64,000 nucleotides of DNA from Alphaproteobacteria bacterium. Lineage in GTDB: Bacteria; Pseudomonadota; Alphaproteobacteria; UBA2966. Under the pieces are notes generated by a model that was not told where the DNA came from, did not search any database, and saw only the letters and a list, made by a program, of their open reading frames with translations. How positions within the stretch are numbered: position 1 is the stretch's first letter; the number at the start of each line of letters is the position of its first letter. A program made the position numbers and the translations under genes. Below, piece after piece: positions 23,289-26,308 of this stretch. The stretch is from assembly GCA_964291395.2 (NCBI GenBank), contig OZ219856.1, positions 1,184,001 to 1,248,000 on the forward strand. The letters run 5' to 3'.

Positions 23289-24068
23289 ATGGACCTCGGT
23301 ATTTCGGGGAAGAAGGCCATTGTTTGCGCTTCGAGCCGGGGACTCGGCAGGGCCTGCGCGTTTTCCCTGGCCCGCGAGGGCGTGGACGTGACCATAACCG
23401 GACGTACGTCGGAAGCTCTCGAGGCTACGGCCGAAGAAATCCGCAAGGCGACGGGTGTCACCGTTACCGCCGTGGTCGGCGACATTTCTACCGCAGAGGG
23501 GCGTGACGGTGCGCTCACGGCTTGCCCGGATCCCGATATTCTCGTCAACAACGCCGGGGGGCCGCCGCCCGGGAACTTCCGCGATTTCAGGCGCGAAGAC
23601 TGGATCAAGGCGCTGGATGCGAACATGCTGACCGCGATCGAGCTGATCAAGGCGACGGTCGACGGCATGATCGAGCGGCAGTGGGGCCGCATCGTCAACA
23701 TCACGTCCGGTTCCGTGAAAGCGCCCATCGACATTCTGGTGCTGTCGAATGGCGCGAGAACGGGCCTCACGGGTGCGGTCGGCACTATTGCCCGTGAAGT
23801 CGCCAAACACAACGTGACGATCAATAACTTGCTTCCCGGAGAGATCTTGACCGATCGTCTTCGCACCACGACCGAGGCCGTCGCCAAGCGAGAGGGGGTG
23901 AGTCCGGAGGAGGCCGTGGACCGCCGGATTGCGCGAATTCCGGTCGGCCGATTCGGCAAGCCTGAAGAATTCGGAGAAGCCTGCGCGTTCCTGTGCAGCG
24001 ATCAAGCGGGCTACATCACCGCCCAGAGCATTCTGCTGGATGGCGGGCTGAACCCCGCGCTGTTCTGA
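23289..24068 (+). CDS. SDR family oxidoreductase
   Basis: ASSRGLG Rossmann motif, ILVNNAGGPPPG, WGRIVNITS, LSNGAR. Confidence 0.88.
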   Translation: MDLGISGKKAIVCASSRGLGRACAFSLAREGVDVTITGRTSEALEATAEEIRKATGVTVTAVVGDISTAEGRDGALTACPDPDILVNNAGGPPPGNFRDFRREDWIKALDANMLTAIELIKATVDGMIERQWGRIVNITSGSVKAPIDILVLSNGARTGLTGAVGTIAREVAKHNVTINNLLPGEILTDRLRTTTEAVAKREGVSPEEAVDRRIARIPVGRFGKPEEFGEACAFLCSDQAGYITAQSILLDGGLNPALF

Positions 24069-24076
24069 CGGCAATA

Positions 24077-25627
24077 TCAGGTCAGCCTGAGATCCCGGGA
24101 CCAGGATTCATACCGCTCGAGTTTGCGTGTGATCTCGGTATAGGCGGCCATATGAACGAGTTCTGAAATCTCCCCGGTGTCGCTGGGTTCGATCTGAATC
24201 AGGCCGTCGCGTGCATAAGGATAGCGATTGGCATCGCTCGGTCGGTCGACCACGGACGTATTCACCGCCACGACCGTCCCCGACAAAGGAGCAATCAGGT
24301 CGAAAGGCTTGCGATAGGCGTCGAACCAGCCGAACGGCGATCCTCGGACGATGCGGTTACCCGGCGTCGGCAATTCCACGAACAGCATTTCGCCGAGGTC
24401 CCGCTGTGCGAAGTCAGTCAATCCGATCGTGGCTCGCCCACCGGGCTCCGTCCCCACCCATAGATGATCTTCGCTGTAGCGCAGTCCGTAAGGAGACATG
24501 GTGTTCACCCTGGCGTCGTCCCGAACCCGCCGTTCACGGAAGGGGTAGGCGATGATGCTGGCGTCGTAGTGCGCGTCGCGCACTCCGATCTGGATGACGT
24601 TGCCGTCTTGGGCATGGGGGCTCGCGACGAAGCCCAACCCCAGGCTCGAGGCGCCGCCCAGCAGATCAGGAGACAACGGACCGCTCGTAACTTGTCCGAT
24701 CCGTTCGCCGTCCTTGAAGATGGGGTATCCGTGGCGGATCGTGCGACAGCCGTCCGCTGCAAGTCCCACCAATTTCCGTGGTGTTCCCTGTTCGGCGACG
24801 GCGGCCAGCGCATCGCGGCCAATGAAATCCTTGTAAAGCTTCACCACCCATCCAAGGCCGACCTCGTACGGGTAAGTCCGGTCATCCATGTCATTGCCGT
24901 TGAGCAGGTAGCCGGCTTCGGTGCGCGCGCTTTCGCGGGCGGCCACTCCGTGCGGCACGATCCCCAGCGGACGCCCGGCGCGTATCAATGCCTCCCACAC
25001 GCAAGGGGCCAGGTCTCGGGAAACGCAGATCTCGTACCCCCTTTCGCCGGTATACCCGATGCGGCTGATAATGCAGCGAACCTCCAGTTCGCGGGTCATG
25101 ACGGAGGCCTCCGCAAGCCGATAGTAAGCCATCTCCGAAAGGTCGGCCTCGGTGATCTTTTGCAGGACCTCGCTTGAATACGGACCCTGGAGGGCGATGA
25201 GGGCCAGATCCGTCGACAGATTCCGCACGTGCACGTCGAGACCTTCGGCGTGCTTCAGGACCCAGCGATAATCTTCGTCGGTCTTGGTGACGTTGACGAC
25301 CCAGATGAACCGGTCTTCCGCCAGTCGGAGGCAAACCAGGTCGTCGATGACGTGACCGTTTTCGTCACACATGACGGTATAAAGGGCTTGGTTGGCGTCC
25401 AAGCGGGCGGCATCGTTGGTGATCAGCCTGTCCACAAGCGTCAACGCGTCCCTGCCGGTAAATTCGAGCTCTCCCATGTGGGAAACGTCACAGAGGCTGA
25501 CCCGTTCCCGTATGGCCCGATGTTCCTCGGCATGGCCGACATATTCGACAGGGCGGGCGAAGCCTTTGAGATTGATGATGCGTGCCGCCGACGCCATGTG
25601 GATATCGAACAACGGTGTTTTTTTCAT
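24077..25627 (-). CDS. Fused GcvT-like aminomethyltransferase plus GcvH-like domain with Arg at the lipoyl-Lys position
   Basis: About aa 1-367: KTPL, DVSHMG, IDDL, ALQGP, SRIGYTGE, RTEAG, G.VTSG. About aa 380-500: LRYSEDHLWV, IGLTDFAQRDLGEMLFVELP, FGWFDAYRKPFDLIAPLSGTVVAVN. Confidence 0.85.
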   Translation of the reverse strand: MKKTPLFDIHMASAARIINLKGFARPVEYVGHAEEHRAIRERVSLCDVSHMGELEFTGRDALTLVDRLITNDAARLDANQALYTVMCDENGHVIDDLVCLRLAEDRFIWVVNVTKTDEDYRWVLKHAEGLDVHVRNLSTDLALIALQGPYSSEVLQKITEADLSEMAYYRLAEASVMTRELEVRCIISRIGYTGERGYEICVSRDLAPCVWEALIRAGRPLGIVPHGVAARESARTEAGYLLNGNDMDDRTYPYEVGLGWVVKLYKDFIGRDALAAVAEQGTPRKLVGLAADGCRTIRHGYPIFKDGERIGQVTSGPLSPDLLGGASSLGLGFVASPHAQDGNVIQIGVRDAHYDASIIAYPFRERRVRDDARVNTMSPYGLRYSEDHLWVGTEPGGRATIGLTDFAQRDLGEMLFVELPTPGNRIVRGSPFGWFDAYRKPFDLIAPLSGTVVAVNTSVVDRPSDANRYPYARDGLIQIEPSDTGEISELVHMAAYTEITRKLERYESWSRDLRLT

Positions 25628-25894
25628 GGCTTCCTGCTCGGCGTTTCAATCGGTGGGGGGACACGCGGAAGGTTCGTCGGCGACATTCTTCGGAGACCAG
25701 CGCACGTCGTTCTCACTACCGCAGGGTACGACAAACGAAGGCTTGCGACGCTGAGCCGCCACCCGATCGTAGAATACGGGAATCTTGAAGGCCCGCCGAG
25801 CGACACCGACCGGAAATTGTGTCAACGGCTTCTTGGCCTGCGAATTCCCGGCCAACCACTCCGTGTTCGCGGCGACGCAGTATTGGGGGATTGA

Positions 25895-26308
25895 CTAGTC
25901 CGAAGCCGGCAAGCCGCCCAAATCGTTGGAGTCGATGATCTTCCAGAACGTGTCCTTGTGGCTGATCTTTCCACCCTTGAAGTCGTACAGGTCGCAGCCC
26001 CGGTAATTGAATACTTCTCCGTTCACGCTTTGTCCGGTGACGGTCCATACGGTGACCGCCCGGTTCTCCGTCACGTACTTGTAGTCGTGCACCCATTTCA
26101 TATCGGGCACCACCTCGAATCTCTCGGCCAGGAATTCGCGTATGTTATCGCGTCCCTGGATGCGATAACCCCAGGGATCGGGGCCGCGCGCCGTCGCGAA
26201 TATTCCGTCCTCCGCGAAATAGGATGCAATACGATCCGGATCGCGACTGTCGAAAGCCGCGTTGATCTCGTCGATCAGTTCGATCGTCACTTTTCCGTCA
26301 CCCGACAT
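25895..26308 (-). CDS. NTF2/SnoaL-like protein (TauX-like)
   Basis: AF..RD.D.I..YFAED.IF...RGP.P.G...G, PD..W, RAV..WT..G, GCDLY.F..GKI..KDTFWK; GGGAGGG RBS upstream. Confidence 0.8.
   Translation of the reverse strand: MSGDGKVTIELIDEINAAFDSRDPDRIASYFAEDGIFATARGPDPWGYRIQGRDNIREFLAERFEVVPDMKWVHDYKYVTENRAVTVWTVTGQSVNGEVFNYRGCDLYDFKGGKISHKDTFWKIIDSNDLGGLPASD

Follow-up and report, generated by a model that had tools for sequence, protein, structure and literature searches.

The glycine cleavage system is the textbook case of a swinging-arm carrier. What, then, is the function of a protein in which the T-protein and its carrier are joined in a single chain, and in which the lipoyl-lysine of the carrier has become an arginine? 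We addressed this question for one such gene in a window of 64,000 nucleotides of alphaproteobacterial DNA, starting from an initial annotation made from the sequence.

Architecture of the fusion gene

An open reading frame of 516 aa with an ATG start was confirmed at positions 24077..25627 of the window (minus strand). In agreement with the initial annotation, which had described a T-protein-like and an H-protein-like domain in this single frame, Pfam detected GCV_T at residues 7–261 (273.2 bits), GCV_T_C at residues 284–363 (56.1 bits) and GCV_H (PF01597) at residues 382–501 (84.1 bits against a cut-off of 22.2). We refer to the fusion as T–H* and to its H-protein-like domain as H*. As also described earlier for the window, no gcvP adjoins the fusion, the neighbours of which are hdaA, an SDR gene, a SnoaL-like gene and ppk/ppx. 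The features are listed below.

24077..25627, minus strand: whole T–H* fusion ORF, 516 aa plus stop (Pfam; homologues; bridging contigs)
24524..25627, minus strand: GcvT-type domain, residues 1–368 (GCV_T 7–261, GCV_T_C 284–363; GcvT equivalogs)
24494..24538, minus strand: linker, residues 364–378, ending at T376-x-S378-P379 (invariant residues; confident model)
24113..24493, minus strand: H* domain, residues 379–505, with the GcvH fold minus the carrier residues (GCV_H, 84.1 bits)
24311..24322, minus strand: predicted hairpin-tip motif D436-A437-Y438-R439, in place of E-S-V-K (conservation; model)
24077..24112, minus strand: C-terminal tail, residues 506–516 plus stop (past the canonical GcvH end in the alignment)
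23289..24068, plus strand: SDR gene, convergent with the fusion, context only (adh_short_C2, 135.5 bits)
25895..26308, minus strand: SnoaL-like gene, co-oriented with the fusion and upstream of it, context only (SnoaL_2, 68.9 bits)

Integrity of the domain junction

The initial annotation had raised the possibility that a stop, or an internal start at Met377, separates the two domains. The junction was spanned without gaps by contigs of two independent DNA runs (X2 record 8, 23900–25327, and X3 record 19, 24207–25631), in which neither a stop nor any listed insertion or deletion was found at this site. A metatranscriptome contig (X19, 24468–24601) also crosses the junction; this RNA run covered 4 of 30 bins and may contain DNA carry-over, and the contig is not proof of transcription. 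Contigs of a further run (X11) end at 24498 and 24526 without bridging the junction, a break that is an assembly gap and carries no evidential weight. The 57 homologous fusions described below are uninterrupted single frames, in all of which T376, S378 and P379 at the junction are invariant. Residue 377 is Met in the window protein and Leu in most homologues, and a T>G change at 24499, present in X2, X3 and X19, likewise gives Leu; an internal start at Met377 therefore fails. These observations refute the proposed split of the two domains.

Loss of the carrier residues in the H* domain

The H* domain was aligned with the GcvH of its own genome by BLASTP (34% identity, E 7e-26) and with pea 1DXM and E. 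coli 3A8I chain E by phmmer (88.1 and 81.2 bits, respectively); H-proteins of the PDB match it at 63–88 bits. Without gaps in the hairpin, the alignments set ...FDAYRKPFD... over ...VESVKA(T/A)SD..., with R439 (nt 24311–24313) in the lipoyl-lysine column, and the placement of Arg439 in the initial annotation was thus recovered in the same register by both methods. This column holds Arg in 56/57 fusions and His in 1/57, against Lys in 16/16 canonical GcvH. Likewise, D436 and Y438 are invariant in the fusions, where the 16 GcvH have E and V/N/T; the Trp of 16/16 GcvH is replaced by G475, and the Glu of HEW by V/L/M389. The fold residues common to H* and GcvH include H388, W390, G402, G412, P447, G450 and N467. 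Conservation of DAYRK, which had been proposed for checking, was found family-wide in the form D-x-Y-R, present in 53/54 metagenome loci covering the hairpin, with D-A-Y-H in the remaining one (L119). Residue 440 varies among K/R/T/G/Q/A across the fusions, so that Lys440, judged from this variability, is not a shifted acceptor.

H* missed the GcvH equivalogs TIGR00527 (88.3 against 115.85) and NF002270 (96.4 against 117), for which the true GcvH of the genome scored 155.5 and 175.8. Beyond the end of canonical GcvH, the tail residues Y506, W509 and R514 are invariant in the 57 fusions. Based on these alignments, H* has kept the GcvH fold, has lost the lipoyl Lys and is predicted not to carry lipoate.

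The T–H* family and its distribution

Homologues of the GCV_T + GCV_T_C + GCV_H fusion, for which a search had been suggested with the initial annotation, comprise 57 aligned full-length fusions of 49–84% identity. Their T domains formed one clade with a support of 100 on a long stem (FastTree, SH-like support), in a tree the backbone of which is unresolved. By its alignment and tree, T–H* is a real, conserved family of single origin. Members come from soil and rhizosphere metagenomes and from sponge-associated bacteria. In a scan of genome contigs with a single-protein query (the metagenome search used the full-length alignment), the fusion was found in only one of 33 loci (L024), a separate Lys-bearing GcvH in 31, and no H match in L042. 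No further H* was detected in a 400-genome sample of the phylum, in which five matches of ~110 bits were ordinary GcvH. A word-index protein search recovered just 6 fusions and understates the family size.

An atlas search with H* returned generic GcvH clusters only, and the cluster look-up gave no database name for the family. A literature search for natural fusions of T with H, or for fused H domains without the lysine, found no paper; the matches were instead papers on gcvTHP operons and on GcvH-L. In these literature and database searches, T–H* is thus a family without paper or name, and is unstudied.

Conservation and divergence of the T domain

The T domain passed the GcvT equivalogs TIGR00528 (295.7 against 235.85) and NF001567 (357.6 against 300), and did not reach the cut-off of the alpha-type GcvT model NF010093 (249.2 against 459). 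Among solved structures, the nearest in sequence to the T domain were 1WOO (298 bits) and 1YX2 (262 bits). M51 is conserved in at least 90% of the 57 fusions and D95, D96, E195 and R231 are invariant. In human GcvT, an excerpt of PMC9551070 names Met56, Asp101, Glu204 and the GcvT-specific Arg233 as tetrahydrofolate (THF)-binding or catalytic residues, which M51, D95/D96, E195 and R231 appear to match; this numbering correspondence is a motif-level mapping via alignments to 1WOO, 1YX2 and 3A8I. With SHM, DD, GYTGE and GxxAR also retained, the T domain seems to possess the motifs for folate binding and catalysis still, the GcvT-specific Arg among them.

The deviations GYTGERGYE and GVAARESAR, pointed out in the initial annotation, are present and family-wide. 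Compared with 71 standalone GcvT, the 57 fusions showed further changes from Phe (97%) to L20, Met (79%) to R25, Phe (97%) to C46, Ala (100%) to V113, Leu (96%) to V228, Asp (96%) to E232 and Tyr (87%) to N243. All six of the residues that are near-invariant in GcvT (F20, F46, A113, L228, D232 and Y243) were swapped for residues fixed in the family. Many of the T-domain substitutions fall within the N-terminal segment, which is essential for H binding by T-protein according to an excerpt of a preprint (10.1101/2020.03.16.993188).

Predicted structure of the fusion protein

An AF2 model built on 144 alignment rows showed one compact body (pLDDT 94.9, pTM 0.92), superseding an earlier run on 10 rows (pLDDT 60.6, pTM 0.38). 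The linker blocks at residues 361–380 had a pLDDT of 93–95, H* was also modelled with confidence, and the C-terminal tail was less confident (block pLDDT 80 and 57). As to which residue tips the hairpin, the model places the turn at residues 438–440, including R439, between strands 431–437 and 441–445. Foldseek matched the model to 1WOO (TM-target 0.96, rmsd 1.3 Å); the matches cover the T part only, with a query TM-score of at most 0.68 for every match, and so say nothing on the docking of H*.

Docking of T and H* as split domains gave a score of 0.45 (runs 0.45, 0.30 and 0.45), against 0.00 for the best of three controls, with contacts agreeing to at least 24% and a partner pLDDT of at least 84. 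The mark used was reached by 116/157 solved complexes and 2/215 mismatched pairs; scores of at most 0.60 at the mark include only 18/157 solved complexes and both passing mismatches. The input was an alignment built by us, and the pass may reflect memory, because a like complex (T–H, 3A8I) is already solved. Taken together, the docking lends weak support to intramolecular contact between T and H* in the predicted structure.

Gene neighbourhoods

A gene for a PanB-like protein lies within 5 kb of the fusion at 22/53 loci, and a TauE-like permease near it at 21/53. In the subset of 33 non-marine loci that have 3 kb or more of flanking sequence to one side, the PanB-like gene was found at 21 and not found within 5 kb at 11. 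Five soil loci (L070, L072, L074, L079 and L087) have the order panB-like, tauE, T–H*, with gaps of 40–70 nt. A sigma-54 two-component system adjoins the panB-like–tauE–T–H* arrangement in soil bacteria. In L024, from a betaproteobacterial MAG, a LysR gene is followed by T–H*, purU, a gene for an unknown protein and an ABC transporter.

The PanB-like neighbour belongs to the PF02548 family of methylene-THF-dependent hydroxymethyltransferases (262–274 bits), scoring 211–225 against 207.55 bits for TIGR00222 and 241–253 against 272 for NF001452. With 37–40% identity to the housekeeping panB (C1:1628806), it is, by sequence comparison, a diverged paralogue of PanB. An orthologue (92–93% identity) was found in 5/6 genomes of the window's genus and in 0/35 other relatives, a co-occurrence with the fusion that counts as one lineage and not as independent events. 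In this genus, the PanB-like/TauE pair is on a different contig from the fusion, which has no operon partner.

Two neighbours in the window were considered as partners. The SDR gene adjoins the fusion in 5/5 genus loci and is doubtful in this role: a homologue (53% identity) lies upstream of ppk in 2/6 relatives of the family that lack the fusion, so the arrangement is probably old synteny. The SnoaL-like gene was rejected, being not conserved in the 5 genus loci, which gave no SnoaL match; in L013, the distance between the fusion and the start of ppk is 268 nt. A search of Rfam around the fusion gene gave nothing at E up to 1, and no glycine riboswitch nearby.

Proposed function

We lean, by a little, towards T–H* being a folate C1 transferase that works without lipoate and contains a pseudo-H domain in its own chain, favoured by the loss of the carrier residues, the retention of the T motifs and the recurrence of folate-C1 genes as neighbours. 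What the analysis shows is the architecture, the carrier-residue loss, the conservation, the single origin, the folate motifs, the compact predicted structure and the neighbourhoods; the activity, the substrate, the direction of C1 flow, the docking site of H* and the role of Arg439 are what we infer. It corresponds to the first alternative of the initial annotation, a lipoate-independent folate enzyme with a pseudo-carrier, which is the best supported and left a role in glycine cleavage out of account.

In the proposed mechanism, a catalytically intact GcvT-type domain would be joined permanently to a degenerate H-protein domain, forming a self-contained THF-dependent C1 (aminomethyl or methylene) transferase that needs no lipoate. 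H* would pack rigidly on the T domain at a putative docking site, as H-protein does on T-protein, stabilize the T fold and present the invariant D-x-Y-R tip at the usual entry of the lipoyl-lysine arm. There, Arg439 might plug or line the substrate tunnel and possibly bind a small anionic substrate. The enzyme would interconvert THF and 5,10-methylene-THF using a free small-molecule C1 donor, with C1 flow in either direction conceivable, and in many bacteria it would work with the PanB-like methylene-THF-dependent hydroxymethyltransferase and the TauE-type permease.

A more specific version is possible, if rather doubtful: the Arg-tipped hairpin may be part of the active site, with H* closing the lipoyl tunnel and Arg439, D436 and Y438 binding an anionic donor, in an undescribed lipoate-free PanB-like/TauE pathway. 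If so, an enzyme acting on a protein substrate would have become one acting on a small molecule, and THF would relay the C1 unit to or from a 2-oxo acid; for the genus of the window, the same protein might also serve a glycine cleavage system without gcvT.

Alternative explanations

The strongest rival arises from the glycine cleavage genes of this genus. About 1.08 Mb from the fusion, on the same contig, a tandem glycine riboswitch precedes an intact gcvH-gcvP operon that lacks gcvT. An alpha-type gcvT scoring over the NF010093 cut-off was found in 0/6 genus genomes against 27/35 other relatives. Some paralogue must supply T activity to gcvH-gcvP, and the fusion could be that protein, so that a glycine-cleavage role is open to it: T–H* would be the working T-protein of the genus, a foreign-type replacement of the lost alpha-type gcvT, with H* as chaperone or solubilizer. 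H* would then perhaps dock free GcvH, the canonical lipoylated form of which would deliver the aminomethyl group in trans. Consistent with this, the fusion is the top match to TIGR00528 in the genome (G000; 296.9 bits), ahead of a T-SHMT fusion (252.1) and C1:1018621 (233.2, below the cut-off), and C1:1018615 groups, with weak support in the tree, with DMGDH/Sox-type paralogues and not with the GcvT radiation. The retained motifs, including the GcvT-specific Arg, and the closest solved relatives, which are bona fide T-proteins and not demethylases, point in the same direction. According to an excerpt of 10.1101/2020.03.16.993188, T-proteins form aggregates when H-protein is missing, complexes still assemble with apo-H, and H-protein multimerizes, which would fit a chaperone role.

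Nevertheless, we regard this as unlikely, if with a real chance of being right. The betaproteobacterial MAG that carries L024 (G041) has the fusion as well as a complete gcvT-gcvH-gcvP operon, so the conserved function of the family is not simply that of GcvT. Moreover, the fusion has no riboswitch, positions near-invariant in GcvT are altered in it, and the soil members are found in PanB-like/TauE operons and not in gcv operons. Free GcvH would be shut out if H* rigidly occupies the H-binding face at the presumed site, as the model suggests (pTM 0.92). Finally, the T-SHMT fusion, also genus-specific among 41 genomes, is an alternative source of T activity.

The second alternative of the initial annotation, that H* is still a swinging-arm carrier, in which Arg439 (or Tyr438) is covalently modified in some other way to bear a C1 unit or a regulatory group, is very improbable. 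Strict conservation of D-x-Y-R at the exposed hairpin tip of the model speaks for it. Among the neighbours at 53 loci, however, no transferase, ligase or kinase recurs, which leaves a modified carrier without support; L119 carries His for Arg, and the domain is predicted to be rigidly packed and not mobile. To our knowledge, there is no arginine-based C1 carrier chemistry.

There is practically no chance that the fusion results from misassembly or from read-through of neighbouring gcvT and gcvH in decay: outside the genus, 10 genome matches (~residues 1–500) are adjacent gcvT-gcvH pairs with 1–2 stops between, which show the origin of the fusion, and the reading is refuted by the indel-free bridging contigs and by 57 intact fusions of 49–84% identity with invariant junction residues, which share one long-stemmed clade.

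Significance

If T–H* is a lipoate-independent C1 transferase, a carrier domain fused to its enzyme, with arginine for lipoyl-lysine, would show how an enzyme with a protein substrate evolves into something else, the former carrier persisting as a structural or active-site module in a family linked to folate-C1 genes (PanB-like, purU). Because no name or paper was found, automatic annotation probably labels these proteins plain GcvT and would thereby probably misjudge glycine and C1 metabolism. The genus also raises the question of where T activity comes from when riboswitch and gcvH-gcvP are kept without a canonical gcvT.

Comparison with known systems

GcvT/AMT of the Thermotoga maritima and Bacillus subtilis type (1WOO, 1YX2) has the same three-domain fold as the fusion, and in the E. 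coli T–H complex (3A8I) an H-fold partner lies beside T, as predicted for T–H*. Unlike in GcvT, the H partner is covalent and without lipoyl-lysine, the substitutions F20L, M25R, F46C, A113V, L228V, D232E and Y243N are present, and the gene is outside gcv operons and without a glycine riboswitch.

With GcvH (pea 1DXM, E. coli 3A8I chain E), H* shares the fold, the length and an ungapped hairpin. It differs in the change of K to R, of E-S-V-K to D-x-Y-R, and in the loss of the HEW Glu and of the Trp (G475); the fusion bears an extra conserved C-terminal tail and is below the GcvH equivalog cut-offs.

The T domain also matches the fold of DmdA (3TFH), LigM (5X1I), the folate domains of DMGDH/DMGO and sarcosine oxidase, and TMAO demethylase (9Q59). 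They provide precedents for GcvT folds that need no H-protein and have small molecules, or iminium/formaldehyde, as substrates. Membership of the fusion in DmdA (153 against 410 bits), LigM (81.7 against 580), TMAO demethylase (236.9 against 1100) or SoxA (184.8 against 1164) was ruled out by the curated cut-offs, and none of the DmdA, LigM, TMAO demethylase or SoxA-type chains spans the H-like domain of the fusion.

PanB (3-methyl-2-oxobutanoate hydroxymethyltransferase) relates to T–H* as the family of its putative pathway partner and not as a homologue of the fusion; its chemistry is reversible, and some variants take free formaldehyde, according to part of PMC7073904.

The fused reading frame

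The initial annotation had described a GcvT and a GcvH domain joined in one ORF, and this arrangement was recovered: window 24077–25627 (−) encodes an uninterrupted protein of 516 aa, hereafter T-H*, H* being its GcvH-like part.

Pfam domains of T-H*
Residues 7–261: GCV_T, 273.2 bits
Residues 284–363: GCV_T_C, 56.1 bits
Residues 382–501: GCV_H, 84.1 bits

The T part scored over the cut-offs of the GcvT models TIGR00528 (295.7 vs 235.85) and NF001567 (357.6 vs 300) and below that of the alphaproteobacterial GcvT equivalog NF010093 (249.2 vs 459), and the H part fell under the cut-offs of both GcvH models (88.3 vs 115.85; 96.4 vs 117). The proposed position of Arg439 on the lipoyl-lysine column (DAYRK vs ESVKA) held in BLASTP alignment to the GcvH of the window's genome, in which the hairpin was ungapped, and phmmer comparison with the pea and E. 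coli H-proteins, also gap-free in the hairpin, again placed Arg439 there.

Extent and origin of the family

Each of the six genomes from the window's genus carried the intact fusion (70–84% identity). Outside the genus, ten matches extended over about residues 1–500, each with one or two internal stops, indicating ordinary adjacent gcvT–gcvH pairs. A search of 1.84 billion representatives added two full-length fusions, at 55% and 49% identity, as well as some fragments, the next matches being standalone GcvT of approximately 365 aa. The metagenome scan retained 80 loci, of which 21 are truncated short of the hairpin and a further 5 hold unfused genes. Scanning of genome contigs added one fusion, L024, in a betaproteobacterial MAG; in 31 other loci the GcvH is separate and Lys-bearing, and in one there was no H match. 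Frame changes in L024 (8280–9488) interrupt the fusion, within H*, as well as the purU gene downstream of it; these are probably assembly errors of that MAG and not real breaks. Sampling 400 genomes from the phylum yielded no other H*. With so few fusions in sequenced genomes, the family is rare among sequenced species, yet it recurs in metagenomes from soil, rhizosphere and marine sites. Near-identical copies of the gene occurred in runs from more than 10 studies, mostly sponge metagenomes.

In a FastTree analysis of 87 T domains, the fusions formed one clade (support 100, stem 0.5) nested in the bona fide GcvT radiation, which is itself poorly resolved. This single clade points to one old fusion event at the origin of the family. 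Neither a description of the family in the literature searched nor a database name for it was found.

Genomic neighbourhood

The gene order in the window is hdaA (+), SDR (+), T-H* (−), SnoaL (−), ppk (+), ppx (+). In the five genus loci examined, the adjoining SDR gene was kept in all and SnoaL was unmatched in all; an SDR homolog also lies 5′ of ppk in two of six family relatives without the fusion. Because SnoaL is not conserved and SDR occurs near ppk without the fusion, we read the latter as a probable insertion into an older hdaA–SDR–ppk region, without a local partner.

Neighbours of the fusion (53 fusion loci, ≤5 kb on either side)
PanB-like (PF02548): 22/53
TauE/SafE: 21/53
Histidine kinase: 14/53
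Sigma-54 response regulator: 13/53
ABC ATPase: 12/53
SDR: 8/53
TctC: 7/53
AA_synth: 7/53

The PanB-like gene, which encodes a diverged paralog, was present in 21 of the 33 non-marine loci with a flank of ≥3 kb on one side. Two layouts were usual: panB-like > tauE > T-H*, with gaps of 40–70 nt, and < tauE < panB-like < response regulator < histidine kinase, divergent from T-H* > AA_synth > ... SDR >. In some soil loci, a further gene is inserted between tauE and the fusion, as in L083, and comparable gaps of ~1.1 kb were seen in L064, L080, L085, L088 and L093.

L083:2983–4125 (+): second, standalone diverged gcvT-like gene (GCV_T + GCV_T_C; NF001567 194 bits)

In the betaproteobacterial L024, purU and a NitT/TauT-type ABC transporter lie downstream of the fusion, and a LysR regulator gene is divergent.

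In the window's genome, the PanB-like ortholog, 70–75% identical to the soil proteins, lies on contig 3.

L143:9124–12842 (+), contig 3, ~516.1–519.8 kb: panB-like > tauE > HpcH/HpaI aldolase > D-2-hydroxyacid dehydrogenase

Genes for a HAD hydrolase, FMN reductase, GST, TPP-dependent E1 alpha/beta, cupin and OpuA-type ABC transporter are divergent from this cluster, which looks like an uncharacterised 2-oxo-acid/C1 pathway. The ortholog was detected in 5/6 genus genomes vs 0/35 other relatives, which counts as one lineage. On contig 1 (~1,022.6 kb), a tRNA-Sec gene (RF01852, 70.7 bits; L022:10645–10735, −) adjoins a luciferase-like monooxygenase gene.

Sequence changes and predicted structure

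Comparison of 57 fusions with 16 GcvH indicated that H* retains the GcvH fold residues, while the lipoyl lysine is replaced by R439 (56 R, 1 H). The other replacements were E to D436, V to Y438, W to G475, and V, L or M for the Glu of HEW. Invariant residues mark the junction (T376-x-S378-P379) and an extra C-terminal tail (Y506, W509, R514). In the T domain, M51, D95/D96, E195 and R231 were kept in the 57 fusions, and fusion-type L20, R25, C46, V113, V228, E232 and N243 occupy sites 79–100% conserved in 71 standalone GcvT. Several changed positions fall in the N-terminal segment, which is needed for H binding according to a passage of 10.1101/2020.03.16.993188 citing Lee et al. 2004.

The AF2 model (144-row alignment) reached pLDDT 94.9 and pTM 0.92 across all 516 residues, linker included, with the hairpin turn at residues 438–440. 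The high pTM suggests that H* may be packed on T at a fixed position. Folded as separate chains, the domains scored 0.45 vs 0.00 for the best control ('weak support'), a pass that may represent memory, since the T–H complex is already solved.

We lean towards T-H* being a lipoate-independent folate C1 transferase, in which the former carrier, with Arg439 at its tip, would serve as a fixed module of structural or active-site function, coupled to the PanB-like protein in many bacteria.

Glycine cleavage genes and alternative readings

In the window's genome, the one true gcvH (155.5 bits) stands immediately ahead of gcvP (1452 bits), and this operon contains no gcvT.

L021:4325–8052 (−), contig 1, ~126.3–130.1 kb: tandem glycine riboswitch (69 and 42.5 bits) > gcvH > gcvP

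The 15 TIGR00528 matches in this genome include no alpha-type GcvT; T-H*, a GcvT-SHMT-like fusion and, slightly below the cut-off, a standalone paralog rank highest. Among 41 genomes, alpha-type GcvT over the cut-off (495–571 bits) occurred in 27 of 35 outside the genus vs 0/6 within it; therefore, some paralog must supply T activity in the genus. T-H* is one candidate, and the GcvT-SHMT-like fusion, found among these 41 genomes only in the six of the genus, is an alternative one.

L023:4935–7613 (+), contig 1, ~1,772,934–1,775,612: GcvT-SHMT-like fusion, 892 aa

Its GCV_T domain (17–253) scored over the TIGR00528 cut-off (251 bits), and its SHMT-like part is diverged (PF00464 106 bits; NF000586 223.8 vs 335). 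The genome has 16 GCV_T-domain matches in 4.16 Mb, many in 800–1100-aa frames of the DMGDH/sarcosine-oxidase type, an unusually large folate-C1 demethylase set.

The retention of gcvH–gcvP without alpha-type GcvT in all six genus genomes would fit T-H* as the T-protein of the genus, with H* as a built-in chaperone; however, the betaproteobacterial MAG carries T-H* alongside a complete gcvT–gcvH–gcvP operon, and no riboswitch was found at T-H*, and we consider this role, the main alternative, rather unlikely. Far less probable is an H* hairpin bearing another modification. Of the DAYRK motif, D-x-Y-R was conserved in 53 of the 54 metagenome loci whose match covers the hairpin, and residue 440 was variable (K/R/T/G/Q/A); thus Lys440, raised earlier as a possible lipoylation site, is not a shifted acceptor. 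The exception, L119:1242–2789 (+), is the sole family member with His at the lipoyl column (DAYHK).

An artefactual fusion, of negligible likelihood, was rejected on gapless contigs of two independent DNA runs that bridge the junction with no indels listed, leaving no place for the stop once suspected between the domains. One metatranscriptome contig also crosses the junction. Met377, formerly a possible start, is not a conserved one, since the common variant 24499 T>G converts it to Leu, the residue in most homologs.

Comparison with known systems

PanB uses 5,10-methylene-THF, reversibly, according to PMC7073904. Foldseek detected no solved chain spanning both T and H*; the T part matched 1WOO (TM-target 0.96), with H* outside the match. 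For human GcvT, PMC9551070 describes THF and catalytic residues, including a GcvT-specific Arg, and M51, D95/D96, E195 and R231 of the fusion match these at the motif level.
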